From IMG/VR virus record IMGVR_UViG_3300024346_000197: a DNA stretch of 38,758 nt; one strand, written 5' to 3'. Source of the stretch: a virus. The translations under genes were made by a program, and so were the position numbers. Below the pieces are notes generated by a model that was not told where the DNA came from, ran no database searches, and saw only the letters and a list, made by a program, of their open reading frames with translations. How positions within the stretch are numbered: position 1 is the stretch's first letter; each line of letters starts with the position of its first letter. Below are positions 1-38,758 of the stretch, piece after piece.

Positions 1-127
1 ACACAATTGTTGACCAGTTTGCTCGTGAAGGCTTCCAACGCATTTATGCGCTGGAACGCCGCTGGCCATACCTACAAGAAACCTACACATTCAACACGGT
101 TGTCAATCAACGAGAATACACCATTTC
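1..127. repeat. Terminal direct repeat, copy 1 (identical to 38632..38758); the contig closes on itself
   Basis: Bases 1..127 (acacaattgttgacc...gaatacaccatttc) recur exactly at 38632..38758. An ORF is continuous in frame across the junction. Confidence 0.95.
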
Positions 128-8300: not shown

Positions 8301-11300
8301 AATGTATGCTCCATTTGGAATTCAGATTGGTGATGATGTTATTGATGAAATAGTTCAACGTGAAGCAAGGGATTATGCGTTGATTGCTTTACGTAATGGT
8401 GATGAGAAAAGGTTTGCCGACCTCACCTCTGCAAAGTTTGGTCGAAATGGCGGTACTGGCCCACTTGGTACACATCGTCTGATTGAGCGTCAGCGTCAGA
8501 TATTTGAAGACATGATGGACTTGCATGGCTTTGATGTTAGGACTGGCACTTTTGCGGATGGCAAACCCCTTCCGGTTGCAACTAGGAAGCTTCCAGGCTC
8601 TCAATCACCTCGTGTTGAAAGCGTTATTAAAAACCTGTCCGAAGAACAGCAAAGACAATGGGCTCGTGTTTCTCAAGAAAACAAACAAGTACTTGATTAT
8701 GTTGATAGTCGTATTGAATTTATAAAGAATGCAAGAAACAACATGCAGTCAGGTAGTGAACTGCAAACGATTTGGGACTCTATATCCGAAAGATTTGTTA
8801 ATTCATTAAAGTCGATTGAGTCTGGTGAGTTGTTCAATATTGTGGACGACTCAGCATCTGGTGGAAAGATTTTATTTGATGATTTGATTACAGAAATGTA
8901 TGAGGTTGCCAAGCAGATAGGTGACGCTGCACGATTGAGTCAAGACCCAATTGCGGCTAGAACTATTGAAGATAACTGGAACAGTTTTATTGATGAAATG
9001 GCAAATCAAATTGAACGCACTAGGTTTATCTTGCAGAATTATAGTCCTGAAAGCCAGATGTATAAGCAACAAAAATTCCAAATTAGAATGATTATTTCTA
9101 ATAAGATGTTGCAAGAATTTGATGCAACTAAGACAATTTTCTTCAATGGGTTTAACTCTAATCTTGATTCAATGTCTGATGAGATGCTACGTCTTGTGCG
9201 TATGCGTAGGCAGGCTTCAAATGTTTTGAATAACCCAGAGGATTATTTTAGGACTGGGCCTGGCAGATTCGATACCAGCAATGTGGACGAATCAATACTT
9301 GCCGCACCTCGTTCTTTAGACGAGGGCGGAAGAGTTGTTGACACTAGAACTGGTGAACTTGTTCCGCCTACAGAGCAGGAGCTTGATGTGATAATTGCAA
9401 ATTATCGCAACAGCGACCAGATGCCGATTGCACGGTCTGCTGAGAATAATGCCAACCGTGCCCACAGTCTTGTGCATGTTGATTTGAGTAAGATGCCTGC
9501 AGACCAGATGCCTGGTGGTGTTGTGTTTACTCCAGACGAATGGGACAACATTGTTCTTGGTGGCGCACTTGAAACTGGTAGTCCTAAGTTTGATGCTTTC
9601 TTGACAGCATTGCGTAGTCAACGTGGTGGCGATGTTTCTGACGACAGGTTGATTGATGGGTTTGTTGATTTTGTTCTTACTAACTTTAGGGATACGGATG
9701 CAGTTGTCAAGAACAGTAAGGTTATTGCTTATCGTCGTAAACAGATTCGTTTGAACTGGAAAAAATCTGAGCATTACTCATGGTTGGAGAATTATAGGAC
9801 TTACGAGCAAAGGAAGTTTGCTAAGGCTTTTGCAGCGAATGCTTCTGATGAAGTCAGACAGCTTGATGCTGCCTCGAATGCAATTACTTATGTTAGAGAA
9901 GCGAGTAAGGAAGCAGTTGTTGATGTTCCTGCTTTTACGGTATCAAGAAGACAGTTGTTGATAAAAGCGTTTGATAATTTTATTGAGACTATGGAAAAAG
10001 TTCAGAAGACTATTCCCAAGAAAGAAACAAGAGTTGCTTTTATCGAAGAAGCAACTCCAAGTATTGACAAATCTTTTAACCCTGGTGCAAAAGAAGTTGC
10101 TGATGAGTTTGATGATTCTGTTGAGACAATCATTAATGATGCTCTTGGTATTGGAGAGGGTACATCCAAAAGCCCAAAGGTTAGCCAAGTTGAATCACGC
10201 ACTTTTCTTGGCAGAGATGGTGAAGGAATGGAGGTTGCTGATTTTGAAGCGCTTCCAATAACTGGTCTTTCTGGTTCTGATGAGGTTCTTCTTTTGAGGA
10301 ACAGGGAAAATGCAAGGGTTGTTGACTCATTTCTTAAAGGTTCTAATGTTGAGAAATCAACACAGCAACTTGAAAGAGAAGTTCGTATTCTTGAAACCTT
10401 GATAAATAACAAGATGGATACTCCATGGACTACGGGTAAGAGTAAGCGAGTTTTGGTTCGTTTACGTAAAGCAGAAATAGCAAAGCGTGAAGGATTTGTT
10501 GTTACTCCTGCGGGTTCAAGACTTAAGGGCAATTGGACTTATGGGCCATTACCATTTGATGATTTTGAAAGTGCAATTGAATATGCAAAAAGAATAGTCA
10601 GGGAAGAAAAACTCGTTCTTGCAAAACCCAAGGATGTTGAACGTTTGAAGAAATTTCTCGAACAGGCTGCGTACAGGACGAAGTACAACATGACTCCCGA
10701 ACTGCAAACAGCAGTAAATATTGTTAGTGGTCCTTCTGAAACTCAGATTGACAAGATGCTGTTTTCGGTTAATAGTTTTATTGATAATGCTTTGAAAAAG
10801 CGTAATGGCAAATACAATCGTAGTTTGGCTGTCACACCCGAAGATGTTGATTATTACATGTCAAAATTGAGAGAACCAGATTTTGATTATGAGGTTGCTG
10901 AATTAGCAGAACTTGATGATTTGCGTAATGCAATCAACTTGAAGAAACTTCCAGAAACCGAAATGGTTTCAGTCCCAAAGGATATGTCTCCTGTTGCTAC
11001 GGACGTCCCAATGGACGCCGCAGCCAAACTGCAAGCAGAGTTGGAATTACTTGGTAAGAGTTCGACCACAGAGGTGGAGCGATTGGGCAAAGATGTTGCT
11101 GAAGCCCGTTCTGTGGCCGACAGGTTGCAAGCAAAGTACGACTTGGGTGTTGCATCTAATGAGGCTGTTGATGAGGACCAGGTTAAATTTCTGCAGAACC
11201 GCATTGAGGTTTTGCAGAAATTGGTTGATGATTCACAGATTGAAGTTCGTGCCGGACGTGGTAAGCAGGCAACCCTTGATTACTCAGATGGTATTTCATT

Positions 11301-12717
11301 TGAATACACGAAACATCAAGAAGCCAAGAAGTTTTTGGAGCATGCGAATGAGGTGTTGTCTTTGCTTGGTGCTAAGACGAATGGTGACTTTGATTCTTTG
11401 GATTCGATTCTTCGTGCGCAGATTGCATCTGAACTTGAAGTGCATCTTGCTGTTGCCGGCATGAAGTCTGCACAACATGACAGGCTTATTCTTGAAGGTG
11501 TACAGAAAATGATTGACGACGGTGGAAGGCTGTTACCAGATGGACGTGTTCAAATGGCTGATGGTTTGATAGTTGATGGTGTTTCTGTTGATGCTGTTGT
11601 TGAAGCTGGTAAGGGCATTAGGGCTGGATGGGATTCTATTAGTAAGAACTTCCCTGAACTTTATGGTTCACCTGAGATGGTTGAACTATTGAATAATGCA
11701 GCACGTTTTGAAGACCCTGAGTTTATTAGGAAGATGGCTTACTACATTGGGCCGTACACAAAGTTGTTCAAAGCCTTTGCTGTTCTGTCACCTGGTTTCC
11801 ATGTGAGAAACGGATTGGGCAATGCAATTCAACTTGCATTGGCTGGTGTTGAAATGGACAATGCAATTCTTGGCACAAAGATGTTTAAGCGATGGATGGA
11901 CGCATCCAAACAGGGCAAGAGTTGGAACGAGTTTATTGTCACTCTTGAACCACAGATGCAGGAAATAATGAAGACTGCAAGGAATGGTTCTATTGGTTCT
12001 GGTGGTGGTATCTACACAGAAGTAATGAAAGAAGCTTCTGGCAATAGGATTATGGATTGGTGGTTGATTAGGAAGAACTATTCCTTTGGACAGGCATCCG
12101 ACAATTACAGCCGATTTGTATTGTCTTTTGACTCTGCAATGAAAGGCAATGACGTGTTCATGGCAGCAGCACGAGTGAAGCGTTTTTATTTTGACTATGA
12201 AGACCTGAGTACTGTTGACAAATTCATGAAGCAAATCATGCCGTTCTGGTTGTTCTATTCACGCAACTTGCATACGCAGATAACGAACATGTGGTTGAAC
12301 CCACGCCCATACCGTATTTATTACAACATTAAAAACAACATTGCGGATAGGGAAACTCCGAATCCACCATTTGTTGAGGAGATGGGTGGATTTAGATTGC
12401 CATTTGGCGATGGCTTGTATGCCATGCCAGATTTTGGATTTACACGTGTTAATAAAGAACTTTCAGATTTAGCCAATCCGATAAGAATGGTACCTAGATT
12501 AAATCCTTTGTTTGTTGTTCCATTTGAACAGTTGACCGGACGTGACTCTTACAGTGGTACTAAGTTTACTGATGCTAATGACAGGTTGTTGAATGCTTTG
12601 ACAAGCATTGCACCACCTGCACAGCAATTTGACAAATTGATTACAAACGATAACCCAATGTCACAGCTCAACGCTTGGCTTGGTTATCTTGGTTCGCCAG
12701 TAAGAAAATACAACTAA
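5314..12717 (+). CDS. Giant virion-associated protein (2467 aa); putative internal/ejection protein
   Basis: Single uninterrupted 7.4 kb ORF. GTG at 5314 overlaps the upstream gene by 11 nt. The central part has long coiled-coil-like stretches. The C-terminal ~450 aa look globular (FHVRNGLGNAIQLALAG, RFYFDYEDLSTVDKFMKQIMPFWLFYSRN). It occupies the T7 gp15/gp16 position. I recognised no enzymatic motif. Confidence 0.75.
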   Translation: MVSKNQDSNEVLNALKQITASKAPKRQSVLPDIGRPIVRESSLTENLLKQLDSNPYRKPGTFFPKTLESSDNSKLENALTNAKNASSILGTLGNIMNVADIPKRAVISSLRETIDALDGNEETKASFSDWKEQVGDREYGFGKAFPMKGWAGRAMGLTGDLLFDPVNWATFGGSIPFKAVIKMSAREFIELSAKELAEGSTRKFIVKKTLENGDVLVKARSVLGKNVIGRDGRAALGRFTKKRLTFLRDAGEDGYKHLTDDMITRISGEVYADGKRVFFRNPNLPAGFAESIGVRGPGIYYFGSRFKVPGTTGIGRLGEDVLTELRLYVSTTKAGKAIRTATTGQGVGRIMRMGVKGVDKKTGEDIILNALVRARVNLADGSLLSPAEINQAMAVIEMHDFARIRRVVHVESESNNMSPLADELAAVENGYRYLDQVPTAEIQARAASGDTGSVVALKVRQYMDYLWSRANARSKAVGGTEIPYNDGYFPHMETAQAKQDRLLKGNDAFDAMLYGDDAMDPLARNQIPKSDRRTVFNERQLEEGDKWFGVTLRQADLTADRLNEIARASGRVNFDMFETNTTKVLAEYLQQFSDQMSWYDALEYGAKEFPDLLSFGEMLMKISPTYSNEIMKKRPNQMFRALETAIRKHSLFLDNSLTSVRNELISKHGSFEAALIAMREGTMSATELDSLLKALNEQMAVAEGLDAQYKQMLADISAQFENRDGISGFSLFLEGTRSVQASQKFEELKALVKEFSGFSYVDMTPERLQQLEPLFRAYEQYTEAVGVLSRDIEFSSLVSDVFPGLNNLGEYGAAQQYDIFAKIIDELGEPSMSTTARQLSSLWGPKNPIEFRTLGVSREAIDAVSRMTIDDINSFLDEVRLMDVDQLAVLGDGVKSGTGRGNNFALWLQALIVENEKLASGGFESSFLDDAKTFLDIKVRKRMNPYDFNAVDTTKADGTFNQWKSAVKRLLVGDVEGFEDLLIQQKALSTIYKWQEMYAPFGIQIGDDVIDEIVQREARDYALIALRNGDEKRFADLTSAKFGRNGGTGPLGTHRLIERQRQIFEDMMDLHGFDVRTGTFADGKPLPVATRKLPGSQSPRVESVIKNLSEEQQRQWARVSQENKQVLDYVDSRIEFIKNARNNMQSGSELQTIWDSISERFVNSLKSIESGELFNIVDDSASGGKILFDDLITEMYEVAKQIGDAARLSQDPIAARTIEDNWNSFIDEMANQIERTRFILQNYSPESQMYKQQKFQIRMIISNKMLQEFDATKTIFFNGFNSNLDSMSDEMLRLVRMRRQASNVLNNPEDYFRTGPGRFDTSNVDESILAAPRSLDEGGRVVDTRTGELVPPTEQELDVIIANYRNSDQMPIARSAENNANRAHSLVHVDLSKMPADQMPGGVVFTPDEWDNIVLGGALETGSPKFDAFLTALRSQRGGDVSDDRLIDGFVDFVLTNFRDTDAVVKNSKVIAYRRKQIRLNWKKSEHYSWLENYRTYEQRKFAKAFAANASDEVRQLDAASNAITYVREASKEAVVDVPAFTVSRRQLLIKAFDNFIETMEKVQKTIPKKETRVAFIEEATPSIDKSFNPGAKEVADEFDDSVETIINDALGIGEGTSKSPKVSQVESRTFLGRDGEGMEVADFEALPITGLSGSDEVLLLRNRENARVVDSFLKGSNVEKSTQQLEREVRILETLINNKMDTPWTTGKSKRVLVRLRKAEIAKREGFVVTPAGSRLKGNWTYGPLPFDDFESAIEYAKRIVREEKLVLAKPKDVERLKKFLEQAAYRTKYNMTPELQTAVNIVSGPSETQIDKMLFSVNSFIDNALKKRNGKYNRSLAVTPEDVDYYMSKLREPDFDYEVAELAELDDLRNAINLKKLPETEMVSVPKDMSPVATDVPMDAAAKLQAELELLGKSSTTEVERLGKDVAEARSVADRLQAKYDLGVASNEAVDEDQVKFLQNRIEVLQKLVDDSQIEVRAGRGKQATLDYSDGISFEYTKHQEAKKFLEHANEVLSLLGAKTNGDFDSLDSILRAQIASELEVHLAVAGMKSAQHDRLILEGVQKMIDDGGRLLPDGRVQMADGLIVDGVSVDAVVEAGKGIRAGWDSISKNFPELYGSPEMVELLNNAARFEDPEFIRKMAYYIGPYTKLFKAFAVLSPGFHVRNGLGNAIQLALAGVEMDNAILGTKMFKRWMDASKQGKSWNEFIVTLEPQMQEIMKTARNGSIGSGGGIYTEVMKEASGNRIMDWWLIRKNYSFGQASDNYSRFVLSFDSAMKGNDVFMAAARVKRFYFDYEDLSTVDKFMKQIMPFWLFYSRNLHTQITNMWLNPRPYRIYYNIKNNIADRETPNPPFVEEMGGFRLPFGDGLYAMPDFGFTRVNKELSDLANPIRMVPRLNPLFVVPFEQLTGRDSYSGTKFTDANDRLLNALTSIAPPAQQFDKLITNDNPMSQLNAWLGYLGSPVRKYN

Positions 12718-13921: not shown

Positions 13922-14224
13922 TCAAATCCCACTGTTACCTGATTCGTTTTCATCTAAGTTAAACCTTTCTTGAATATATGGATGACTGCGGAGATGCAAT
14001 GCTAGTCTCTCATATGCTGCATTTCGTAACCGCCAAGCGTGTGGCTTGGATACGCCCATTCTTTCTCCTAGTTTTTGTAGGGAAATCATTTCCGAGTTTA
14101 GGGCGTTGACAATAAACTGGTCTTGTTCTGACAGTTTCTCAATACAGTCTGCCACTGCTTCACGTAATGGTTGTAGTTCTTGAATTGATTCTGCGATTGG
14201 TTCTAATGCGCCCGCCATCATCAA
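13922..14224 (-). CDS. Sigma-70 region-4-like HTH protein (100 aa), putative transcription regulator
   Basis: LSEQDQFIVNALNSEMISLQKLGERMGVSKPHAWRLRNAAYERLALHL follows the sigma region-4 / LuxR-type HTH pattern. Confidence 0.6.
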   Translation of the reverse strand: MMMAGALEPIAESIQELQPLREAVADCIEKLSEQDQFIVNALNSEMISLQKLGERMGVSKPHAWRLRNAAYERLALHLRSHPYIQERFNLDENESGNSGI

Positions 14225-14297: not shown

Positions 14298-14732
14298 CTA
14301 TTCCTCAGAGTCGTATTCTGGGTTTATCATCATGTCCATCACTTCTTCTGGTAGAAGCAAGAAACCTTTTGCTGGATTGGCAGAGTTCCAAGCAAATGTT
14401 TTCATTCTACTTTTAGGAAGTGTTGCAATGTATCGCTTTAGTCTTTCAACTGAAACGGCAAGCATTGCACCATCAAGACAATAAATATACACCCACCATT
14501 TTGCTTCTGTAACTTCAAGACCACTTGGCTTCCAACCATTACCTCTTGGGTTTTGTTCAGTTTCAACGACCATTCGACCATTGCGGTAGCGGTCTGTCTT
14601 GACTTCAAATGAACCATCAGCAATTGATTGAAGGAAATCACGGGTGAGTTCTTCACCTTTCTTTCCAAACTTCAAGTCGTCAGAGAAGTTGTACCTGCGT
14701 TCTGCTGGGAAGTCCCAGCGTGACTCTTTCAC
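14298..14732 (-). CDS. Hypothetical protein, possible PD-(D/E)XK-fold nuclease (144 aa)
   Basis: GKKGEELTRDFLQSIADGSFEVKTD gives a D...E-x-K arrangement. It is next to RusA in the replication/recombination block. GTG start with no clear RBS. Confidence 0.4.
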   Translation of the reverse strand: MKESRWDFPAERRYNFSDDLKFGKKGEELTRDFLQSIADGSFEVKTDRYRNGRMVVETEQNPRGNGWKPSGLEVTEAKWWVYIYCLDGAMLAVSVERLKRYIATLPKSRMKTFAWNSANPAKGFLLLPEEVMDMMINPEYDSEE

Positions 14733-14784: not shown

Positions 14785-15138
14785 TCATATCTTCTCCAAA
14801 TAGAGACAAACGATTTGCTTGTCGTCTGTATACGCTACACCGTTGAGTGCATCAAGTACTGACTTTGCATAGTTGTCAATATCTCCAGTAAGTCTGCCTT
14901 TTACAACTGGGGCATCCGGGTCTCTTTCAACTTTTTCTATAAAGAGTTCAGTGCCTTCTTTGGTGAAACGAAGTTTCATGGACAGTAACCCATCCTCGAA
15001 ACATGGGCCAACATATGCGTTGGCAATTGCACGTTCGTATTCAACTGTTTCTTTTGGCGTGAACGCACGACCTCTGCGGGTCATGCGTGGTCGCCCTTTT
15101 GACCTTGGTCTGATGTTGAATACCTGTGAATATTTCAT
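14785..15138 (-). CDS. rusA: RusA-family Holliday junction resolvase (117 aa)
   Basis: KGRPRMTRRGRAFTPKET and GDIDNYAKSVLDALNGVAYTDDKQIV match the RusA signature (D-x-D-N-x-x-K-x-x-x-D-A-L-x-G-x-x-Y-x-D-D). RBS is aggaga. ATGA overlap with the upstream gene. Confidence 0.85.
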   Translation of the reverse strand: MKYSQVFNIRPRSKGRPRMTRRGRAFTPKETVEYERAIANAYVGPCFEDGLLSMKLRFTKEGTELFIEKVERDPDAPVVKGRLTGDIDNYAKSVLDALNGVAYTDDKQIVCLYLEKI

Positions 15139-16025
15139 TGGTCTCCTGTCATGGCTTTGCCATAAGCGTCTTCAATTATCTTGGTCAAATGTACCACCGC
15201 ATCTTCTCGGTCACGGAACTTACCCCATCTTTTATCTGCGTCCACAAGGATGATGTAAGCGTAGTTGATTGGTACTTCAAACTCACGCATGAAGTGACAC
15301 ATACGAATGAGGGTGCTTGACCTGTCCGAGTTTGGCAGCGGGCCTTCACGCCACATGCGTTCAATGTATCCATTGGCATGTTGTAGTGCTTCTGCAACAG
15401 ATGTTGAAGTTGGTAAATCTAGGACTGCACGTTGTTTTGGACGATGCATCTTTGCCAGCGGTGCCAACAAGTTGACGCTGACACGATTGTCTATTGCTTC
15501 ATCAAGGAACTGCTTGAGAGTCATTGGTTCGTCGCTGTCTTGGAACATGATGTAGCGAACTTCTGGTAGTTCGTTGAATCCATTTGGATACGGCAAGCGG
15601 ACATAGTTTCCCATCCCGGATGTTTCTTCTTGCTTGGGATTTATTTCTTTGGGTGGCAACCCAATAACTTCATGAGCGCTGAGCAAGGCTCTGCGCATCA
15701 TGACTCCAGGAACCCAGTCGTTAGCGAATACCCACACATGGTAGCCTTTGCGGGTTTTCTCAACGAATGAATGAACGCCCTTGACTTTGAGGGCGGTCTG
15801 TAGGTTGCGAGCTGAGTCAATGTCATCAACATCGATATCCGAACAGCCCCACTTGACTGTGTTGCCTTGAGTCAAAGGATAGATGCCAATAAGTTCTTCA
15901 CCATATAGGTGGCGGGCAAAGGTTTCGTAAGTGACACTTGAACGGATGCAAGCACCTTCCCACGCACCGTATGCATCTGAACGTCCCAAGAACAGGGACA
16001 TGAATGTTTCTACACCATCATTCAT
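15135..16025 (-). CDS. Archaeo-eukaryotic primase (AEP) type primase-polymerase (296 aa from ATG 16025; the ORF opens at 16064)
   Basis: ELIGIYPLTQGNTVKWGCSDIDVDD carries the motif I acidic cluster. RKGYHVWVF carries the motif II His. YVRLPYP is also present. ATG 16025 has an aaaggg RBS and an ATGAATGA overlap with the helicase stop. It lies directly downstream of the helicase. Confidence 0.7.
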   Translation of the reverse strand: MNDGVETFMSLFLGRSDAYGAWEGACIRSSVTYETFARHLYGEELIGIYPLTQGNTVKWGCSDIDVDDIDSARNLQTALKVKGVHSFVEKTRKGYHVWVFANDWVPGVMMRRALLSAHEVIGLPPKEINPKQEETSGMGNYVRLPYPNGFNELPEVRYIMFQDSDEPMTLKQFLDEAIDNRVSVNLLAPLAKMHRPKQRAVLDLPTSTSVAEALQHANGYIERMWREGPLPNSDRSSTLIRMCHFMREFEVPINYAYIILVDADKRWGKFRDREDAVVHLTKIIEDAYGKAMTGDQ

Positions 16026-17043
16026 ACAGCCCTTTCTGCTGGTATTGGATTGGTAATTTGCCATCTAGGTAAGTGAGACGACCTGTGGCCGAATCAAGTT
16101 CAAAGTCAATGTCATCAACAAGTTGACCAGCAGGTCGCTTGTTTTTGAGCAAAGAGACACTAAGGGTGTGTTCGTGAATCAATGCCTCATGCCTGAGGTA
16201 TTCGATTCTGTCTTGAGTCCGTTCCGAGTGAGACCTGTCGTTTTTCTCAATGAGTTCATGCAACTCTGCAGCAATTTGATACTTTTTGCGACGTACACCG
16301 ATAACGCTGGTGGCCTGTTGCTCACCACCGTAAGCACCTGAAGACATGGTTAGTTTTGCTCCGTCTGCACCAGCGTTTCTTGACGCTTGGTGCAAGACCA
16401 GCATTGGTATGTCATGTCTGCGACCAAAGCCTTTTAGGAATGTTGCTTTGTCCGGAACAGTTTCACCTGCTTCTAGTAGGTCAAGATAGTCGACCACAAT
16501 GAGTTCTGGTGCTTGTCCCCATACATCACACACTTCGTCGTATGCCCGTTCCATATCGGAACCGTTGAGTGGTTGGTCAAAGACTGCGAGGTTAGGGAAG
16601 TACTCTTCTGCTGTTTGACGCATGAGCTTTATTGCTTGTTCATCATTGGAAGCGATTTTGGCTTCTAGTTCACGTGCGTCAATTCGATGCAGGATGCATG
16701 TGAGTTTGAGTAGGACTAATTGCTTTGGTTCATCAGGGATGAACATGACAATATGTTTGTCCATGTTTTTTTGTAATGTATTTAGTAAGACCAATGTCTT
16801 ACCGCCATGTGCGAATCCCAGCATCATGCAAATTTCGCCAGGTGCAATACCTCGTAGTTCTTCGTCAATCCGAGGGATACCTAAGTGGACTCTATCTTGA
16901 GGTGATTGTGCCCATCTAATAAAAGAATCCGCTGCATCTGCAAGCGGACTATACATTCTGTACTCGGAATTGGGGGAGACCAATTGATTTGGTCTCCCCA
17001 CATTTTCCCAGCCAGCAGATATTTCTTCTGCCGACAGTCGCAT
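16018..17043 (-). CDS. DnaB-type (RecA-fold) replicative DNA helicase (341 aa)
   Basis: Walker A is MLGFAHGGKTLVLL and Walker B is LIVVDYLDLL, followed by LVLHQASR. This is the typical DnaB_C / T7 gp4 helicase-domain layout. Confidence 0.8.
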   Translation of the reverse strand: MRLSAEEISAGWENVGRPNQLVSPNSEYRMYSPLADAADSFIRWAQSPQDRVHLGIPRIDEELRGIAPGEICMMLGFAHGGKTLVLLNTLQKNMDKHIVMFIPDEPKQLVLLKLTCILHRIDARELEAKIASNDEQAIKLMRQTAEEYFPNLAVFDQPLNGSDMERAYDEVCDVWGQAPELIVVDYLDLLEAGETVPDKATFLKGFGRRHDIPMLVLHQASRNAGADGAKLTMSSGAYGGEQQATSVIGVRRKKYQIAAELHELIEKNDRSHSERTQDRIEYLRHEALIHEHTLSVSLLKNKRPAGQLVDDIDFELDSATGRLTYLDGKLPIQYQQKGLYE

Positions 17044-18340: not shown

Positions 18341-18372
18341 TGCACCCCAAACCCTTTGGGGTTTTGGGTGCA
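18341..18372 (-). promoter_or_regulatory. Imperfect 13-bp hairpin upstream of the exonuclease gene
   Basis: tgcaccccaaaccc-tttg-gggttttgggtgca has one mismatch. There is no U-tract on either strand. Confidence 0.4.
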
Positions 18373-18387
18373 CATGCTTTGCTTGTG

Positions 18388-18406
18388 CCCCCCCCTTACC
18401 CCCCCC
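18388..18406 (-). repeat. C8-TTA-C8 homopolymer pair (G8-TAA-G8 on the coding strand of this arm)
   Basis: Read directly: ccccccccttacccccccc in the 144-nt intergenic gap between the SLT and exonuclease genes. Confidence 0.9.
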
Positions 18407-18451
18407 ATTGTACACATTGTGTGTGAACTGTCAGGTATTAGGTGGAGATAC

Positions 18452-18904
18452 TTATTCCTCGCCCCAAGGGCCCCATCCGTTGTCATACCTGGCATCGGCA
18501 TAGTTATAGATTGCTAAGGCAGACCTGAGGTTGATTGATGGGTCTTGAAGGTCTGTCAGACGCTCCAGGATGCCCCTAGACGAGAGATACTTGACCCAGA
18601 AGCCATTTACTTGCATGAGCCCCCAAGAGCCTTTATTTGGGTCATCTTTGTTGATTGCATAGAGACTGCATTTTGATTCTCGCCACATGATTTTGTCTAA
18701 TTTGTCTAGCAGGCTACGTGACCAGCCTTCCTGAACGGCAAGATGCCACCATTGAGGACATTTGGCGTCCACAGGTGGGCGAACCATGGCTCCTTCTGGG
18801 GCTCGCAGGTTTCTGACTAGCAAAGACCCTTCCGAAGTGGGGTTTGTTGGGGGCAAAACACCCCCAAGAATTAGGCTAAGTGTGACTGTTATTTGTGCTA
18901 TCAA
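18452..18904 (-). CDS. Lytic transglycosylase (SLT domain) with an N-terminal hydrophobic segment (150 aa)
   Basis: MWRESKCSLYAIN carries the catalytic Glu-Ser. GLMQVNGFW and ALAIYNYA follow the SLT pattern. The N-terminus MIAQITVTLSLILGGVLPP is hydrophobic. TTG start overlaps the upstream stop. Confidence 0.75.
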   Translation of the reverse strand: MIAQITVTLSLILGGVLPPTNPTSEGSLLVRNLRAPEGAMVRPPVDAKCPQWWHLAVQEGWSRSLLDKLDKIMWRESKCSLYAINKDDPNKGSWGLMQVNGFWVKYLSSRGILERLTDLQDPSINLRSALAIYNYADARYDNGWGPWGEE

Positions 18905-20692: not shown

Positions 20693-21673
20693 TTAGTAGT
20701 AACTTGGGTGTGTGTTTGTACCGGTTGGTGTTTCCCAACCGTGTTCTATCAATGTTGTATCTGATTCAATCCATAGTGCGTCCCAACAATCGCAAGCATC
20801 CATTGCACATAGCAAGCATGCACTACATGTTGCACAGTTTGTACGAAGCTCGTCATTGGGAACAATGTCTTGGATTCCACATCTTTGACAATCAACCATG
20901 TTGCGTGTTGCGTCATAGACGGTTGTGTACAACTCTGCTGCTTCGTAGCATTCCTCGGCGCTCAATGCGCCGATTGGAATCAATGCTTCATCGTCATCGT
21001 CATACATTGTTGTTGCTTTGTCCCACGATGATGCATACGACGTTGTTTTGTAACCGTAGTCCCAATCATTCCAACCACCGCCGTACATACCTGTGTGTCG
21101 CCTGTATGTAATTGCTGCTGGTTTGTATGACTCATTTGACCACCACACATCAGAATCCCAGTGACCATCTTTTTCGTTGAGGATGTACCAGTCATACTTT
21201 GCATCGTCATTGACGGTTAGGAACGCAAGCTTCGAACCCTTAGCCCACGTTGCCATCTGCTGGAAGTATTCACCATCATCAAGAGACGAGATGCCACCGA
21301 TTGCCGGCATAATGTCTTCAGCGAACACTCTGGTATCAGAGCGTGTCTCATTCTTTTCCATTTTGACAGGCAAGATACCGTTGTGGCCGAGCACGGTGTT
21401 TTTGTCTTCACCAAGTAGGAAAGGATGACAGTTGTCAACTGTGTTTGTACCGTGAGTAGTCCAACGGAAGTGGAAGATTGCAGGCCCTTGCATCTTTTTG
21501 CGAGCGTCCACAAACTTGTTTGCAACTTCTTCAAAGTCCATACTGCGAACAATGTGAAGTTTTTTACCTGTTGAAATAGCAAAGCCGAACCCATCAGGGT
21601 TGGCTTTAGCGGCGACACGGAACCTGTCCATGTCTGGTGTTACGTAGTCTGGTATCAGTGTGAGTAAACACAT
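20693..21673 (-). CDS. Class-II (Ntn) glutamine amidotransferase-like protein with a C-terminal Cys-cluster extension (326 aa)
   Basis: The N-terminus MC supplies the Cys nucleophile. HFRWTTHG, NCHPF and GHNGIL follow the GATase class-II (YafJ/GATase_4-like) pattern. The C-terminal ~130 aa are W/Y/G/D-rich and then carry CQRC...CATCSACLLCAMDACDC. Confidence 0.75.
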   Translation of the reverse strand: MCLLTLIPDYVTPDMDRFRVAAKANPDGFGFAISTGKKLHIVRSMDFEEVANKFVDARKKMQGPAIFHFRWTTHGTNTVDNCHPFLLGEDKNTVLGHNGILPVKMEKNETRSDTRVFAEDIMPAIGGISSLDDGEYFQQMATWAKGSKLAFLTVNDDAKYDWYILNEKDGHWDSDVWWSNESYKPAAITYRRHTGMYGGGWNDWDYGYKTTSYASSWDKATTMYDDDDEALIPIGALSAEECYEAAELYTTVYDATRNMVDCQRCGIQDIVPNDELRTNCATCSACLLCAMDACDCWDALWIESDTTLIEHGWETPTGTNTHPSYY

Positions 21674-21674
21674 A

Positions 21675-22691
21675 TTAAACTAACTCCCTTTCTTTTACTC
21701 TTTCTGAAATTCTTTGGTTGAGGATGTGGAACTTTGAGCGTTCGATTGTCCATTTGTTGAATGAATCGAACATCAATCCACCTGATACGGCTTCTTTTAT
21801 GTTCACATCTTTTGTGTACTCAAATAGTGCTTGAGCAAATTGAATTGCTGCTAGCACCGTGTCTGTGTTGAGTGATGGACGGAAGAACCGTAACTCAATT
21901 GTTTTTGTGTTTTGCAAATTGACCGCCATGAACCGTTCCGAGTTCATCACATGTCCCTTTGCCATTTGAGTCAAGGTGTTGCCCTTGATTGTCTTTTCCT
22001 CGTAGTGGTCGTATCGAGCATTGAGGAACATGTTCATGTCAAATCGTGCATAACGAGTTGACTCACGACCAGCGAATTGCACAAGTGGAATGCGATTTTT
22101 ATAGATGAAGTAAATGAATTTCATCAAGTGTGAATCGTTGATGAATGCATTGCGTGACAAGTGCAAATGCAATCCACATGTGCTTGCATTCCAGGCATGA
22201 AATCCACGAGACTTCAAACCAGAAATTGCTTTCCAGTTGAAATCTTGCATGAAGAATTCCATTGTGCCGGGATGTGAAACAATTTCGAAGCCATGGTCAA
22301 GTGAACCATCAGATTTGAGGTAAACAGTTTCCATTCCGCTGATTACAGTGTTTGCTTTTACAAACCTTGCACCGTTCATTCTGTCACCAGAAACACATTC
22401 TGTTTCCAATTCGACTCCGATATACAACTCAGGGCTCATTTTGTCCCCGTTGTATTTTGTTACTGAACGATATGCCGAACGGAAGTCACCGTTTTCATGC
22501 ATGAAGATTGGACGTTTCTTGAATGCCCACGGAAGGATGAGACCTTCATCATTGTCATCACTGTTGTGGTTTGTGTATGATTCATAGCAATCTTCACCAC
22601 ACCACCAATCGCCACCGATATCGACCATGTCCTCGATTTCGTATGTTTCTTCACAGTTTGGGCATGTGATTTCTTCATTATTTCTTGGCAC
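21675..22691 (-). CDS. Amidoligase (glutamine-synthetase-fold COOH-NH2 ligase, Amidoligase_2-like) with an N-terminal zinc ribbon (338 aa)
   Basis: Motifs are YIGVELETE, DGSLDHGFEIVSHP and CGLHLHLSR. The N-terminus has CPNC...CGEDC. GTG start is preceded by aaaggagaa. Confidence 0.7.
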   Translation of the reverse strand: MPRNNEEITCPNCEETYEIEDMVDIGGDWWCGEDCYESYTNHNSDDNDEGLILPWAFKKRPIFMHENGDFRSAYRSVTKYNGDKMSPELYIGVELETECVSGDRMNGARFVKANTVISGMETVYLKSDGSLDHGFEIVSHPGTMEFFMQDFNWKAISGLKSRGFHAWNASTCGLHLHLSRNAFINDSHLMKFIYFIYKNRIPLVQFAGRESTRYARFDMNMFLNARYDHYEEKTIKGNTLTQMAKGHVMNSERFMAVNLQNTKTIELRFFRPSLNTDTVLAAIQFAQALFEYTKDVNIKEAVSGGLMFDSFNKWTIERSKFHILNQRISERVKERELV

Positions 22692-23030: not shown

Positions 23031-23066
23031 TGTTTGTGCGCCACCCACCAAGGGGGCGCACAAACA
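23031..23066 (-). terminator. Perfect 12-bp GC-rich hairpin (tgtttgtgcgcc / ggcgcacaaaca) in an intergenic gap; candidate U-tract-less terminator or attenuator
   Basis: Read directly. It lies between the stop at 23079 and the start at 23009. Confidence 0.5.
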
Positions 23067-24488: not shown

Positions 24489-24521
24489 TTTCTCACGGGG
24501 GCGAAAAACCCCCGTGAGAAA
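24489..24521 (-). terminator. Perfect 13-bp hairpin (tttctcacggggg / cccccgtgagaaa, 7-nt loop)
   Basis: Read directly. It starts 6 nt 3' of the 24527 stop. There is no U-tract. Confidence 0.55.
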
Positions 24522-24842: not shown

Positions 24843-24908
24843 TAAAGCCCAATGTTGACCTGCCAGGGCAATCGCAGGGTTCATGTTGTTTTGTGTCCAC
24901 CAATGGAC
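24843..24908 (-). promoter_or_regulatory. Repeated intergenic element, copy A (candidate early promoter/operator)
   Basis: taaagcccaatgtt...agggcaatcgcagggttcatgttgttt....tccaccaatggac matches 25145..25211 at most positions with a 1-nt indel. It contains the inverted repeat gtcca-nnnn-tggac. Confidence 0.6.
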
Positions 24909-24918
24909 AAAGCATGTA

Positions 24919-25144: not shown

Positions 25145-25211
25145 TAAAGCCCAATGTTTTGCTTGCTAGGGCTATCGCAAGGTTCATGTTGTTTAGAGTC
25201 CACCAATGGAC
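25145..25211 (-). promoter_or_regulatory. Repeated intergenic element, copy B
   Basis: See copy A. It sits at the same distance from the downstream start codon. Confidence 0.6.
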
Positions 25212-25222
25212 GATGCTGAAAA

Positions 25223-25444
25223 TCAGCGAGCAATCAACCACTCAAGGTTGACAGTAGGGTCAAGAATCGCCTCAACGACGGTTCCAATGTTGACGCCATG
25301 CTCCTCGACGAAGCCCAAGCCATAGGTATTGACAACATCGTCAATGTCTAAGCCTGTCAACTCGGTCAGAGCCTGAACAGAGCGCCACGAGTCATCAGAC
25401 TCATCAACCCAGACCTCACGGTCATAATCATGTAATACGGACAT
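25223..25444 (-). CDS. Acidic small protein (73 aa from ATG 25444)
   Basis: MSVLHDYDREVWVDESDDSWRSVQALTELTGLDIDDVV.... First ORF downstream of the 800-bp non-coding region. Confidence 0.6.
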   Translation of the reverse strand: MSVLHDYDREVWVDESDDSWRSVQALTELTGLDIDDVVNTYGLGFVEEHGVNIGTVVEAILDPTVNLEWLIAR

Positions 25445-25520
25445 AACCAACCTGCTTTCATGTGAAGTGAATACAACAACCGACCCAATGAGTGAGAGTC
25501 AGGATGAGAGGGGGAAATTA

Positions 25521-25557
25521 GCAACCCCCCCCACCAAAATCCCTTTGGGGGGGGTGC
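25521..25557. other. C8/G8 homopolymer hairpin (gca-a-C8-14 nt-G8-tgc)
   Basis: Read directly: gcaaccccccccaccaaaatccctttggggggggtgc. Confidence 0.8.
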
Positions 25558-25805
25558 AAGAAAGGTGAACAGTCATAGGGGGGCGGAAAAAGAATGGGTT
25601 GACCTTGACACGGCTGACCACACTGGTGCTGAACTGGTTGTGTGCCTGTATGACACGACGGGGGGGGTGGGGGTGTGCGCCCGTCAGGCTACCAAGGGAC
25701 GGGCACTGGTCATGTCCGTAGCATCGATTTCCCCCAATCCGAGCAGGGTTTTTGCGACACGTGGGGGTACTAACTTTTAAGTACCAGCACCCTAAAATTG
25801 ACACG

Positions 25806-25841
25806 AAATTTGGTACAAAATTTGGTGCAATGCACGTGCAT
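25806..25841. repeat. Tandem 12-mers aaatttggtaca/aaatttggtgca followed directly by the perfect 12-bp palindrome atgcacgtgcat
   Basis: Read directly. It lies in a non-coding region. Confidence 0.8.
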
Positions 25842-25973
25842 CTTTTTGGCACCCGGTGCATTGGTTTTGTGGTTGACCACGGTGAGCAGTTTTGTGGTTT
25901 GGTTGGCGGTGGTTTTTGCCGCACCGCATAGGTTGGGTTAGTGTGGTCTCCCTTGTGGTCGACCAGTGTTCTG

Positions 25974-26004
25974 CGGTTTGTCAGCCTGAGGGGCTGACAA
26001 ACCG
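25974..26004. other. Perfect 13-bp hairpin (cggtttgtcagcc / ggctgacaaaccg, 5-nt loop)
   Basis: Read directly. No U-tract on either side. A 10-bp palindrome tggtcgacca lies just upstream at 25956..25965. Confidence 0.75.
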
Positions 26005-26031
26005 AACATGTCTTGAGACAGTTCTGTTCTT

Positions 26032-26055
26032 CCCCCCATCCCTACCCTTCCCCCC
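26032..26055 (-). other. Canonical G-quadruplex-forming motif on the minus strand (G6-AA-G3-TA-G3-AT-G6)
   Basis: The plus strand reads ccccccatccctacccttcccccc. Confidence 0.7.
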
Positions 26056-26251
26056 AAGTGTTACATATCTGTGAGTGTTTGTTCGACCACAGGCGGTGGG
26101 GGTTGTTTTGTAAGTACTGGCGCCTATTTTTGACGTGCTGTTTTTCTAGCCTTTTTGGTCGAAACTGGAACACAGTTAGGGACTTTTTTGCCGTTTTTAA
26201 TCTTGTAACCCTTTTGAACGTACCCTGTCCAACATGGTCCTTTGGTTGCCA

Positions 26252-26569
26252 TCAGGAACCTTTAACCCATTTTTTGTTTTTTGGTTGGGCTGTCTTGGAT
26301 GGGGACCATTTGACTTTGTCTGCCCAGTATGCAGCAGACATTGGCCCACGAGCAATGTTGCTGCGATGACGGGATTTGAAAGCTTCACGCTGTCCAGCGG
26401 TCTGATTGGTTCTGACACCTTGTTGACCGAATCGAATCGTTTTGACTTGACCACCACTTTTAGCTACAACGATGTGTGACTTGGTTGGGTGTCCTGGGGT
26501 TGCTTTTGGTTTGTTGTAACCAGAAACACCTGCACGTGCGAGTCTTGGGTCTTTTTTGCTTGTTGCCAT
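26252..26569 (-). CDS. Small basic conserved-looking protein (105 aa), function unknown
   Basis: ATG at 26569. MATSKKDPRLARAGVSGYNKPKATPGHPTKSHIVVAKSGGQVKTIRFGQQG...FKSRHRSNIARGPMSAAYWADKVKW. It resembles a small basic protein family I recall from diverse phage genomes but cannot name. Confidence 0.7.
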   Translation of the reverse strand: MATSKKDPRLARAGVSGYNKPKATPGHPTKSHIVVAKSGGQVKTIRFGQQGVRTNQTAGQREAFKSRHRSNIARGPMSAAYWADKVKWSPSKTAQPKNKKWVKGS

Positions 26570-26614
26570 ATAGTATTTACCCTTTGTTACCTGTAACGAA
26601 TTGCCTTATTAGCA
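26570..26614. promoter_or_regulatory. 45-bp divergent intergenic region with TATAGT/TAGTAT -10-like hexamers and the inverted repeat gttac-ct-gtaac (26586..26597)
   Basis: Read directly. It separates the first minus-strand gene from the first plus-strand gene. Confidence 0.35.
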
Positions 26615-27049
26615 ATGAAGCATAATGAAGAACTAACGCTTACACAGCAACAACAGGTTTATGTTGAGTGGTTGTGCACTGCTCCAAGCGAGCGTTTGCC
26701 GGCCACAAAGAAGGCAATGGCATTAGAACTTGGTGTTGATATTACAACACTACGTCGCTGGGAAAAGAAAGAAGTGTTTCGCAATGTCTGGAAGGACACT
26801 GTGGACGAAGTACAAGGTTCGCCAGAGCGAACTCAGCGCTTGCTGGACACTTTGTACAGCAAAGCGCTTGATGGTGATACTAAGTCTGCACAGTTGTATT
26901 TGCAGGCTACGAACCGTATGGCTCCGCCTACGGTAACGGTTCAGACTAATAAGAAAGCAGCAGAACTTTCTGATGCTGAGTTGGATTCTTTGATTGCTGC
27001 GGTAGCGGAGCGAGAGAAGGCTCAACGTACACACTTGAAGGCATTGTGA
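26615..27049 (+). CDS. HTH protein, terminase small-subunit-like (144 aa)
   Basis: First gene of the late arm. TKKAMALELGVDITTLRRWEKKEVF is an HTH. DGDTKSAQLYLQATN and the coiled C-terminus are typical of TerS-like proteins. It is not adjacent to TerL. Confidence 0.5.
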   Translation: MKHNEELTLTQQQQVYVEWLCTAPSERLPATKKAMALELGVDITTLRRWEKKEVFRNVWKDTVDEVQGSPERTQRLLDTLYSKALDGDTKSAQLYLQATNRMAPPTVTVQTNKKAAELSDAELDSLIAAVAEREKAQRTHLKAL

Positions 27050-30453: not shown

Positions 30454-30715
30454 GGCAAAAGATATTGCAGGCAGAATTGTTGCACTTTTTCTCACCAACG
30501 CCCTCGGCGTTGTGACTGGTGCTGCAATTATTGCTCCAGACCTAGAAGTATGGAAGTCGGCTCTTATCGCTGGCGCAGTATCCATTTTCAAGGTTGCAGA
30601 ACAACTTGCAAAGGCAAGCATTGATGGTGTTCTTACCAAAGATGAAATTGATGCAGCATTTGGTGCAAGTCCTAAAAAGATTGCAGCCAAGAAGGTAGCC
30701 GCTAAGAAGGCATAA
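30446..30715 (+). CDS. Membrane protein resembling r1t-type actinophage holins (89 aa)
   Basis: RBS aaggaga. GRIVALFLTNALGVVTGAAIIAP and VWKSALIAGAVSIFKVA are two amphipathic/hydrophobic helices, followed by a Lys/Ala-rich tail (KKIAAKKVAAKKA). Confidence 0.5.
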   Translation: MNKAKDIAGRIVALFLTNALGVVTGAAIIAPDLEVWKSALIAGAVSIFKVAEQLAKASIDGVLTKDEIDAAFGASPKKIAAKKVAAKKA

Positions 30716-32301
30716 TGGAACTCACTGACCTTCTCAATGAGAAGGAGTGGAGGAAATGCAAGGGTAGTGAAGGTGCGACCACAGATGAACTTGTGGCTGC
30801 ATTTTCACACTTTTGTGCTACCCATTGGATGATTCGACACCCTGAGCGGGGTCGTATCAAGTTTGTCTTGCGTGAAGCTCAAGAGGAAACTGTAAGAGTC
30901 TGGATTGACTCTCGCTACAGTATTGTTCTGAAAGCACGACAGATTGGGTTCTCTACTCTGGCTGCTGCATTTACATTCTGGGAAACATTCTTTTGGGCTG
31001 ACCGATTTACGGTCATGCTTTCACGTACAGAACGTGAAGCATCCAAGTTATTACAGAAGACCAAGTACGGCTACAAGATGATGCCTGCATGGATGCGCAT
31101 GCGTGGACCAGACTTGCTTTCAGACAACCAGTTGAAGATGGTGTTTGCTAATGACTCCTCTATTGAGTCTTTGCCATCTGGCAATGACCCTGCTCGTGGT
31201 GAGTCTGTGTATCGAGTAATCATTGACGAAATGGCGTTCTTGCCCAACGCCGAAGAAGCATGGGCATCTATTGAACCTATTGCCGACGTTGGTGGTCGTG
31301 TTATTTGTTTGAGCACAGCCAATGGTGAGGGTAATATCTTTCATCAACTGTGGGTTGGTTCACAAACTGGCAACAACCGATTTACTGGTGTCTTTTTTCC
31401 GTGGTCTGCTGGAGACCGTGATGAAGACTGGTACGAGGCCAAGAAGCGTGACCTTCCAGACTGGCAGTTAGCACAGGAATATCCAGATAATGCTGAAGAA
31501 GCTTTTATCCGTTCTGGTCGTCCTGTATTTGACCTGGAATCCTTAAGAGATATTGAACCAGTAGAACCAGACCGTGGTTATTTAAAAAACCAAATGGGCA
31601 GGAATAACTACACATTTATCAATGATGGTGGAGCTTTAGCAATATATGAGTTTCCAGATATTGGGGAAACATATGTTATTGGCGCTGACGTTGCAGAAGG
31701 TCTAGGCCACGGTGACTATTCCTCAGCACATGTTATTTCTGCAAACACTGGATTGGTGGTTGCCCACTGGCACGGACATGTGGACGCAGATTTGTTTGGC
31801 GAGGAAATACTTCATGCAATTGGGTTTTTTTACAATTACGCATTGGTCGGGATTGAATCCAACAACCACGGTCTTACAACCATTAAGGGTCTACAAAGAA
31901 CTGGATACAAGAACATTTACCGTTCTAGGAAGTTGGGTCAAAGAAACCCAACAATCACCGAGACGATGGGTTGGAGAACGACTTCGGTCTCCAAGCCATT
32001 GGCGATTGACGAACTAAATGCCTCGATAAGAGACCAGGCACTCTGGCTCTACGACTACAACACAATTGCAGAATTAAGAACATTTGTTCGTGAAGCAAAC
32101 GGTAAGATGCACGGTTCACCGCATGATGACCGTGTTATGTCTTTAGCAATTACCAACCAGATGTTGAAATACGTTTGGCTTCCTGAATATAGGCATGATG
32201 CATCTCCGGTAAAGAACACTTTGGGTTGGTGGGAAAAGTTCATAATGAAGCCAGAAGTTGAAAAAGAAATGCACATTGGTGCATTTAATTCCAGAGAGTA
32301 A
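30715..32301 (+). CDS. terL: Terminase large subunit (528 aa)
   Basis: The Walker A-like motif is LKARQIGFSTLAAA, Walker B is YRVIIDEMAF and the coupling motif is LSTANGEGN. The C-terminal RNaseH-like nuclease acidic residues are VIGADVAEG, GIESNNHG and SPHDDRVMSLA. Confidence 0.9.
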   Translation: MELTDLLNEKEWRKCKGSEGATTDELVAAFSHFCATHWMIRHPERGRIKFVLREAQEETVRVWIDSRYSIVLKARQIGFSTLAAAFTFWETFFWADRFTVMLSRTEREASKLLQKTKYGYKMMPAWMRMRGPDLLSDNQLKMVFANDSSIESLPSGNDPARGESVYRVIIDEMAFLPNAEEAWASIEPIADVGGRVICLSTANGEGNIFHQLWVGSQTGNNRFTGVFFPWSAGDRDEDWYEAKKRDLPDWQLAQEYPDNAEEAFIRSGRPVFDLESLRDIEPVEPDRGYLKNQMGRNNYTFINDGGALAIYEFPDIGETYVIGADVAEGLGHGDYSSAHVISANTGLVVAHWHGHVDADLFGEEILHAIGFFYNYALVGIESNNHGLTTIKGLQRTGYKNIYRSRKLGQRNPTITETMGWRTTSVSKPLAIDELNASIRDQALWLYDYNTIAELRTFVREANGKMHGSPHDDRVMSLAITNQMLKYVWLPEYRHDASPVKNTLGWWEKFIMKPEVEKEMHIGAFNSRE

Positions 32302-36843: not shown

Positions 36844-36856
36844 GTAATTGAATCTG

Positions 36857-36888
36857 GGGGGGTGGGCAGAAACCCACTCCCCTATTTC
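36857..36888 (+). terminator. Intrinsic terminator candidate after the capsid unit
   Basis: 10-bp G-rich stem (ggggggtggg / cccactcccc, one G-U pair) with a 6-nt loop, followed by tatttc. Confidence 0.6.
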
Positions 36889-38562: not shown

Positions 38563-38758
38563 GTATTAGTTTGAACACTCTTCGCTCACAGGTTCGCACA
38601 ATGGCTGACCTTGATGAAGTGGACTTGCCAAACACAATTGTTGACCAGTTTGCTCGTGAAGGCTTCCAACGCATTTATGCGCTGGAACGCCGCTGGCCAT
38701 ACCTACAAGAAACCTACACATTCAACACGGTTGTCAATCAACGAGAATACACCATTTC
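38559..38758 (+). CDS. 5' portion of the wrap-around adaptor-like CDS (continues at base 3..623)
   Basis: ATG 38559 overlaps the upstream TGA. MSISLNTLRSQVRTMADLDEVDLPNTIVDQFAREGF... runs off the window end inside the terminal repeat. Confidence 0.6.
   Translation, partial: MSISLNTLRSQVRTMADLDEVDLPNTIVDQFAREGFQRIYALERRWPYLQETYTFNTVVNQREYTI
38632..38758. repeat. Terminal direct repeat, copy 2 (identical to 1..127)
   Basis: Same 127 nt as the window start. Offset is 38631. Confidence 0.95.

Follow-up and report, generated by a model that had tools for sequence, protein, structure and literature searches.

Paired homopolymer runs in a gene-free island upstream of the packaging genes of a phage: a candidate replication-origin core

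In phage lambda, the origin of replication (ori) lies inside gene O, and in phage SPP1, oriL lies inside gene 38. In both cases, repeats and an AT-rich segment sit within the linker of the initiator gene. To our knowledge, paired homopolymer runs are not a described part of either origin. Another kind of priming does involve such runs: in ColE1, a G-run in RNA II pairs with a C-run in the template, and conserved sequence block II (CSB II) of human mitochondrial DNA is G6AG8; both are associated with priming by R-loops or G-quadruplexes. In phage T7, the replication promoter phiOR is located just after TerL, and the non-coding terminal repeat has many short G/C runs and small palindromes. For nearly all uncultured phages, we know of no identified origin, and AT-richness and iterons have been the only clues so far. 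Here, we describe a gene-free island of 673 nt (positions 25451-26123) in the virus record IMGVR_UViG_3300024346_000197 (38,758 nt; we refer to this whole stretch as the window). The island lies upstream of terS and contains two conserved elements, which we call modules A and B. We conclude that the island is a conserved cis-acting control region, neither a structured RNA nor a gene. By analogy with the systems above, we propose, with a probability of roughly 0.45, that module B is a replication-origin core combined with promoter-leader elements.

Module B (25974-26066) consists, in order, of a hairpin, two C-runs of 6-8 nt around a short spacer, and the sequence CGTTACA. The hairpin (25974-26004) has a perfect 13-bp stem, as had been pointed out in the original prediction for this locus, and a 5-nt loop. 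The core (26029-26066, plus strand) reads CTTCCCCCC-N9-CTTCCCCCC and then GTTACAT (26060-26066). Its C-runs (26032-26037 and 26050-26055) are separated by a 12-nt spacer with a central TA. The core pattern is unique in the window, with 0 occurrences expected. On the minus strand, 26032-26055 reads G6-AA-G3-TA-G3-AT-G6, which is a canonical G-quadruplex (G4) motif (four tracts of G3 or more, with loops of 1-7 nt).

We compared the island to 80 IMG/VR loci that were collected through TerS homologues. Of 76 related loci, 65 have paired C-runs on the plus strand no more than 250 nt from terS, and the element ends about 46 nt before the ATG of terS in these relatives. In about half of the relatives, the syntenic position has C6-8-TATAGT-C6-8. 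The spacer variant CCCTACCC is almost confined to the window phage's family. (Contig ends beside this variant turned out to be poly-C artefacts, and at the ends of two contigs, L488 and L485, 30-50 nt of poly-C are sequencing artefacts that give false C-run matches.) More generally, we defined a paired-homopolymer class as two C- (or G-) runs of at least 6 nt on the same strand, 3-14 nt apart. In the window, this class is found at 26032-26037/26050-26055 and at 18388-18395/18399-18406 (spacer TTA), and module A has a counterpart on the other strand (G8 at 25660-25667 and G5 at 25669-25673). Within 5 kb on either side of terS, there are essentially no paired runs besides those at the sites of modules A and B.

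The hairpin of module B is conserved as a structure. A stem of 7-14 bp occurs at this position in 32-40 distinct relative sequences, with about 12 unrelated stem sequences among the sub-lineages and its position unchanged. In a six-pair register, 80.8% of the cells are paired, as compared to 61.3% after shuffling, and 39 cells are changed on both sides, as compared to 14.2 +/- 2.9 after shuffling (0 of 500 shuffles); all slid registers score lower. A comparative alignment, which had been suggested as a check, thus finds compensatory changes in this hairpin.

We then asked where the motif occurs outside of this family. An exact search of IMG/VR for CCCCCCTATAGTCCCCCC (C6+TATAGTC6+) found at least 120 viral contigs. 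Among the matches listed, the motif is found in 111 distinct contexts with unrelated flanks, the local GC content ranges from 30 to 71%, and no protein family is common to all of the loci. At 40 of the listed loci, an open reading frame (ORF) of at least 150 amino acids reads through the motif as PPIVPP, PPYSPP, GGTIGG, or GGDYRGG. Because ORFs cross the motif in four different combinations of frame and strand, selection acts on the DNA and not on the protein. Examples of these ORFs are Phage_rep_O proteins, proteins with Phage_rep_org_N and Phg_2220_C, Lin1244_N proteins, and DnaD_N/HTH_36 proteins. Also among the matches listed, a gene of a replication-initiator type lies within 900 nt of the motif at 27 or more of 118 loci, and an 8-mer is repeated at least three times within 200 nt on either side in 61 of 111 motif contexts, versus 11 of 94 controls. 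The upstream flank of the motif is AT-enriched over 40 nt and structured over 56 nt. A text search of the literature for the motif found no mention of it.

Four roles had been put forward for the island: a replication origin, a packaging or genome-end region, a cluster of early promoters, or a structured non-coding RNA. An origin is the best supported of these, by analogy, as the homologous motif is found inside replication-initiator genes and beside iterons. We prefer this reading because it best covers all of the contexts of the paired-run motif. The resemblance to the lambda and SPP1 origins is that, in unrelated phages, the linker of an O-like or replisome-organiser gene contains the motif, along with short repeats and an AT-rich stretch. 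In the window, the resemblance lies in three copies of a 14-bp palindrome, TGTGGTYGACCACA (25868-25881, 25954-25967, and 26078-26091), and a segment that is 65% AT (25768-25835). With up to two mismatches allowed, all three copies of TGTGGTYGACCACA in the window are inside the island, and 0 of 100 shuffles reach the total count. Unlike lambda and SPP1, however, the window phage has no O-like initiator, its element is intergenic, and there are no iteron arrays at module B.

How might such an element work? We suggest that two stable G:C homopolymer clamps would flank a meltable core of 6-12 bp (TATAGT in many of the relatives, ATCCCTACCCTT in the window), which adjoins the hairpin and the AT-rich segment. 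Leftward transcription over the runs would yield a G-rich RNA on a C-rich template. This RNA could form a persistent R-loop or a G-quadruplex, which would prime DNA synthesis. The layout of a run pair plus a hairpin would double as a promoter-proximal leader, and the origin and promoter functions are probably combined. We infer this priming mechanism from ColE1 and CSB II. The likenesses are in sequence: at the second site described below, two G-runs of 6-8 nt, separated by a few bases, are on the non-template strand and just downstream of a promoter, and the minus strand of module B has the four-tract G4 motif. A mechanism that depends on structure would explain why the motif occurs across hosts of 30-71% GC. 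On the other hand, the run pair of module A has only three G3 tracts, and a purely structural model would leave the conservation of the TATAGT spacer unexplained.

Several observations weigh against an origin. The window's spacer is ATCCCTACCCTT instead of TATAGT, and its core is equated with the TATAGT type by synteny alone (the hairpin upstream and CGTTACA downstream). The phage encodes an AEP primase (15135-16064) and a DnaB-type helicase (16018-17043), but both genes are 9-10 kb from the island. Scans of the window's proteins against family libraries found no O-like or DnaD-like initiator, and the element is neither in nor beside an initiator gene. Origins with iterons would be expected to have at least three sites beside an AT-rich segment; the island holds three TGTGGTYGACCACA copies and a 65% AT stretch, but around module B the rest of the family has two-copy repeats only and no iteron arrays. 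The island is 53% GC, as compared to 44% for the genome. The GC skew, another suggested check, turns at about 25.5 kb, but this is not independent evidence because the runs themselves produce the turn. Also, two DNA ends just 3' of the motif (in L357 and L095, discussed below) suit a cleavage site, and in the rightward direction, the TATAGT (or TACCCT) that separates the C-runs would be a good -10 element about 40 nt ahead of terS, as expected of a plain promoter.

The promoter deserves a closer look, as the window has a second run-pair element (18344-18434, minus strand) that is associated with one. This element lies between the lysozyme-like and exonuclease genes, upstream of the latter. A promoter, CTGACA-N16-TACAAT (18434-18407), is directly followed by G8-TAA-G8 (18406-18388) and then by a hairpin (18362-18344). 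About 35 of 40 relatives that were retrieved through the exonuclease have the same arrangement: -35 and -10 elements, G7-8-AAA-G7-8, a variable hairpin, a Shine-Dalgarno sequence, and an ATG. Six relatives have the consensus promoter TTGACA-N17-TATAAT at this site and no G-runs, so the run pair is a promoter-proximal element of the sense strand that is dispensable to the promoter. This site directly suggests that run pairs are used as promoter leaders, which is compatible with an origin that is activated by transcription. The order of elements is the same on the minus strand of module B, where the run pair comes first, followed by the hairpin, a Shine-Dalgarno sequence, and the ATG of a cassette of leftward genes.

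It is conceivable, although we consider it less probable than an origin, that the island is a divergent promoter and leader region and nothing else. Module B would then be a late promoter for terS (with TATAGT or TACCCT as the -10 element), a leftward promoter for the cassette, or both; the G-run pair and the hairpin would form a 5' leader; and module A would be a terminator or insulator for the cassette. The promoters at 18434-18407 and in its relatives fit with this, including the six with consensus elements. So does the fixed distance of TATAGT from two unrelated families of downstream genes (which start at about +52), as does TTTACA/TTTACT-N16-17-TATAGT in the relatives L083 and L084, and module A does adjoin the stop codon of the cassette. 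The phage also encodes a candidate regulator: a 100-aa protein at the distal end of the early arm (13922-14224, minus strand) weakly resembles sigma-70 region 4 and RinA-type late activators (below the cut-off, E = 1e-4 to 6e-3) and could be a late-gene regulator. The arrangement would be similar to pL-nutL-N-tL1 of lambda, with small basic proteins as the first leftward genes. However, a scan for sigma-70/SigA promoters (-35 and -10 elements with a spacing of 16-18 nt) found no site in 25451-26123 on either strand, and by inspection, the minus strand has no TANNNT hexamer before the G-runs of module B. In 40 unrelated loci, the motif is inside long ORFs, in both orientations, which would be odd for a promoter. 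In the window, module B is intact despite 540 nt of antisense genes before terS. And the hairpins of module B and of the internal site differ in sequence, so they are not sites for one N-like protein. Thus, the proposed cluster of early promoters holds up in part: the layout of runs and hairpin is the one that follows promoters elsewhere, but the island has no canonical promoter.

We considered and dropped two related ideas. N-like antitermination, with the hairpin as an analog of boxB, was rejected because the hairpins at the two sites of this one genome are unrelated. Readings of TGTAAC and ACTATAGGG as promoters of the ECF type or the T7 type were rejected as well, as the required partner elements are absent.

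Alternatively, module B could be a site where packaging initiates or where the genome ends (a pac site, a cos site, or the boundary of a terminal repeat). The terminase cut would be a few bases 3' of the second C-run, and the packaged DNA would start at CGTTACA and continue into terS. We view this as unlikely, and as clearly less probable than a promoter. As with pac of SPP1 and cos of lambda, the module B of relatives is immediately upstream of terS (by about 46 nt), has a fixed orientation (in 65 relatives), and has repeats and a hairpin nearby. But the window's element is 540 nt from terS, and elsewhere the motif lies far from terminase genes, inside replication genes; a packaging site inside the replication-initiator genes of many phages would be unusual.

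The ends of contigs also bear on packaging; this evidence is confined to L357 and to loci that are whole contigs. L357 ends with 45 nt of the Illumina TruSeq adapter (14338-14382), directly after ...CCCCCCTATAGTCCCCCCTTCCC. This is 5 nt past the second C-run and about 720 nt from the TerL gene. Either the DNA has a fixed physical end at the motif or the adapter is contamination that was left untrimmed, and L357 is the only contig in the whole collection with an adapter-tagged end at the motif. L095 has a true contig end that begins exactly at CGTTACA. On the other hand, contigs also tend to end at the G-runs of module A (L081, L087, and L104), as expected of assembly breaks at homopolymers. 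The window and its relatives of 39-40 kb assemble as circles with arbitrary break points, and the window's TerL is nearest to T4-type terminases.

T7-like phages offer another comparison. In 15 T7-like contigs among the matches listed, the motif is 58 nt after TerL, which is the place of phiOR in T7 and is also near the start of the terminal repeats, as packaging would have it. In contrast, scans of the window against family libraries found no RNA or DNA polymerase of the T7 type, and the closest cultured T7-like relative that we examined, P-SCSP2, lacks the motif.

We now turn to the island itself. Its left border is the start of a 75-aa leftward gene (25223-25450) and its right border is the stop of a 42-aa leftward gene (26124-26252). 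The original prediction described a longer non-coding stretch of 800 bp. From the list of ORFs, the lack of a conserved frame, and the pattern of substitutions, 25451-26123 is indeed non-coding, but the remaining 128 nt (26124-26251) encode the 42-aa basic protein, which has PHROG matches down to E = 4e-8 and homologs that are 59% identical. The location just inside the divergent junction of the two arms is correct, as the leftward arm starts at 26569 and terS at 26615. The 141-aa ORF on the minus strand is spurious, as suspected. Its tblastn matches are confined to two near-identical contigs, its substitutions at codon positions 1/2/3 are 2/5/0 and 3/1/0 (versus L081 and L082), and it crosses a block with indels in the relatives. 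(The greedy gene calling that we tried for listing gaps was unreliable, as it accepted this ORF.) No coding frame is conserved across 160 related loci, and the cassette proteins of relatives have only chance-level matches to the island.

All of the G/C homopolymer runs that had been reported are present: C8 at 25525-25532, G8 at 25547-25554, G6 at 25578, G8 and G5 at 25660-25673, C5 at 25731, G5 at 25763, C6...C6 at 26032-26055, and G5 at 26098. Altogether, the window has 29 G/C runs of at least 5 nt, of which 11 fall within this 2% of its length (P = 7e-12, binomial test). Could these runs be artefacts of sequencing or assembly? The same runs are present in L081 and L082, which are independent assemblies that are 96-97% identical to the window, and homologous paired runs are at the same place in 47-65 relatives, so the runs are not assembly artefacts. 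Their lengths are equal in the independent assemblies, except for one G-run in L082, as expected of non-coding DNA.

The smaller features that had been reported are there as well: the palindromes TGGTCGACCA (25956-25965) and ATGCACGTGCAT (25831-25842), and the tandem 12-mers (25806-25830). The C8 and G8 runs form a 10-bp hairpin (25524-25555, minus strand) with arms ACCCCCCCCA and TGGGGGGGGT and a 12-nt loop. It is part of the leader of the 75-aa gene and lies about 75 nt before that gene. L083 and L084 have analogous hairpins of a C-run and a G-run at this position, followed by the conserved AGGTGAAC. Between modules A and B, 25796-25973 is a lineage-specific filler that is common only to L081, L082, and the window. 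We considered whether it was the remnant of a cassette gene, but its tblastn matches are at chance level only. In a scan for intrinsic terminators, neither strand has a T-run next to the hairpin at 25974-26004 or the one at 25524-25555; the only match in the island is a weak 6-bp stem at 25824-25842.

Module A (about 25650-25795, plus strand) is a block of about 135 nt that we identified by nhmmer and by alignment. It matches about 50 loci; its orientation is the same in all of them, and it precedes terS by 0.5-1.5 kb. Its parts are the paired G-runs (G8-T-G5, 25660-25673), a local hairpin (25679-25704), a CGTAGC block, and an end that reads GGGGGTAC...AAGTACC (25761-25791). Paired G-runs on the plus strand are found in 47 loci, all at -1500 to -500 from terS. 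The run pair is short of a canonical four-tract G4 motif. A pattern derived from module A had at least 120 matches in bacterial genomes, but these are at chance level and none fits the module A profile, including a match in a Planktophila contig (a metagenome-assembled genome), and we dropped the leads to a host and to an attachment site (attP).

The conservation and fixed orientation of module A might indicate that the island encodes a structured RNA, such as a small RNA from module A; a protein would be another option. By inspection, many relatives of module A end with a small hairpin and a T-tract on the plus strand. Also, the island folds somewhat better than shuffled sequences (z = -2.2 and -2.7), but these modest scores come from local hairpins. 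A scan with the covariance models of Rfam, as had been proposed, gave no match at the gathering threshold in the whole window; within 25300-26700, the best E was about 1, and the matches at E up to 10 are at chance level. Scans for tRNA and tmRNA found no RNA gene. RNAalifold on 27 sequences of module A gave 4 invariant pairs, 0 compensatory changes, and no consensus structure; what is conserved in module A is blocks of sequence. Inspection also found no TANNNT hexamer before its G-runs. As for a protein, there is no conserved ORF, and substitutions avoid third codon positions. Overall, the suggestion of a structured non-coding RNA is not supported, and we consider an RNA or a protein very improbable.

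Comparison to the relatives shows how the island came to be so long. In all of the relatives with both modules, a cassette of 1-3 leftward genes (350-1090 nt) sits between A and B. The content of the cassette varies and is mostly small basic proteins. In these relatives, module A adjoins the stop codon of the cassette, module B lies between the start of the cassette and terS, and the gaps at the position of module A are 220-410 nt. No gene separates module A from module B in the window, L081, and L082, where the distance from one to the other is about 180-250 nt. The window's cassette is instead at 26124-26569 (minus strand) and encodes the 42-aa basic protein (26124-26252) and a 105-aa basic protein (26252-26569, phrog_7595). 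(L081 and L082 have a longer gene in place of the 42-aa gene, plus the 105-aa gene.) These two antisense genes separate the window's module B from terS by 540 nt, and the leader of terS is conserved from GTAACGAA onward only.

A direct repeat records this change. The last 30 nt of module A are present twice, at 25761-25791 and, as GGTGGGGGTTGTTTTGTAAGTACTGGCGCC, at the cassette stop (26094-26124, plus strand; the second nhmmer match is 26086-26138). In L083, L084, and L088, the counterpart of GGTGGGGGTTGTTTTGTAAGTACTGGCGCC is the end of module A beside the stop codon of the cassette. The copy at 26094-26124, which adjoins the stop of the 42-aa gene, marks the rearrangement junction. In this lineage, the cassette moved to the terS side of B, which left A and B fused as a single stretch of 673 nt that is free of genes. 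The gap is therefore two ordinary intergenic control regions that were joined by the relocation of the cassette, plus a leader of about 200 nt for the next gene. Module A, with its inverted run pair next to the stop codon, is probably a boundary or terminator of the cassette unit. The 105-aa gene is a mobile cassette gene, as it is present or absent among otherwise close relatives. At least 598 relatives of this protein (phrog_7595) are found in IMG/VR, on contigs that vary widely in size and reach 202 kb, and the protein is also similar to a portion of "minor head protein and DNA pilot" proteins.

What kind of phage is this? An exact direct repeat of 127 nt at both ends of the window (1-127 and 38632-38758) implies a circular assembly and a complete genome of 38,631 unique bp. 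The rightward arm (plus strand) runs from terS at 26615 around the circle to about 13251. It includes terL (30715-32301), whose product is closest to T4-type terminases, a portal of the P22/SU10 type, and an ORF of 2467 aa. The leftward arm (minus strand) runs from 26569 down to 13109 and encodes the AEP primase, the DnaB-type helicase, the PD-(D/E)XK exonuclease, RusA, an amidoligase/GATase pair, and a WhiB-like regulator (PF02467, E = 1.6e-11). The WhiB-like regulator, the GC content of 44%, and the freshwater relatives of 39-40 kb suggest that this is a phage of freshwater Actinobacteria. Published phages of Planktophila are 39 kb, have 44.8% GC, and contain whiB (PMC10202952). They are not close relatives of the window phage, and a blastn search of GenBank phages with the island found no matches. 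The nearest GenBank record (L470, MW202803.1), whose TerL is 52% identical, has about 600 nt of non-coding DNA upstream of its packaging genes; this stretch (180-460) has C7-A-C6, G6, and G9 runs and a tandem array of GTATGTAG. Non-coding DNA that is rich in G/C runs and lies upstream of the packaging genes thus extends beyond the immediate family.

We made several other observations about this genome. The ORF of 2467 aa (5314-12717, plus strand), in the structural arm, has no sequence match in Pfam, PHROG, or PDB. It may be comparable to the 8-kb "island" of hypothetical genes in Planktophila phages (PMC10202952), and a virion RNA polymerase is one speculative idea for its product. Scans of the larger ORFs in the window against family libraries found no phage RNA polymerase. 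In the early arm (20693-22691, minus strand), a gene similar to class-II glutamine amidotransferases adjoins the amidoligase gene, and the pair could modify DNA or a small molecule. A 53-nt repeat (87% identity) is at 24861-24913 and at 25164-25216, both in apparent gaps of the leftward arm. The two copies encode hydrophobic peptides of 23-24 aa (MNPAIALAGQHWALFLLSESWVL and MNLAIALASKTLGFTNHNYFGRLS), and the stop codon of the first overlaps the ATG of the next gene (ATGA). These are probably real, paralogous mini-genes that are preceded by a GTCCA-N4-TGGAC palindrome. Finally, strong hairpins of G5-7/C5-7 without T-tracts are found at several gene boundaries in the leftward arm (24494-24516, with a 12-bp stem; 16972-17000; 18849-18865; and 23040-23060), and a terminator-like hairpin, rich in C and with G7 (36856-36885), lies 3' of a gene that ends at 36843. 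Hairpins of G/C runs are a general punctuation of this genome.

The paired-run motif recurs inside initiator genes that are similar to lambda O, SPP1 G38P, or DnaD, in phages of hosts with 30-71% GC. This raises a broader possibility, which we advance only tentatively: C6-8-TATAGT-C6-8, along with variants that have other short spacers with A or T, might be an undescribed and near-universal origin core of tailed phages, under selection at the level of DNA even inside initiator genes, and based on structure, be it a clamped melting site, an R-loop, or a G-quadruplex, rather than on a host-specific protein. The island would be one instance of it, in which a second, inverted copy, module A, marks off a hypervariable cassette. 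If this is true, then origins in metagenomic phage genomes could be annotated directly from an exact mark of about 20 nt. Within the window phage's own family, a hypervariable early cassette has its borders at modules A and B, and because of these modules, assemblies of these abundant freshwater actinophages tend to break here.

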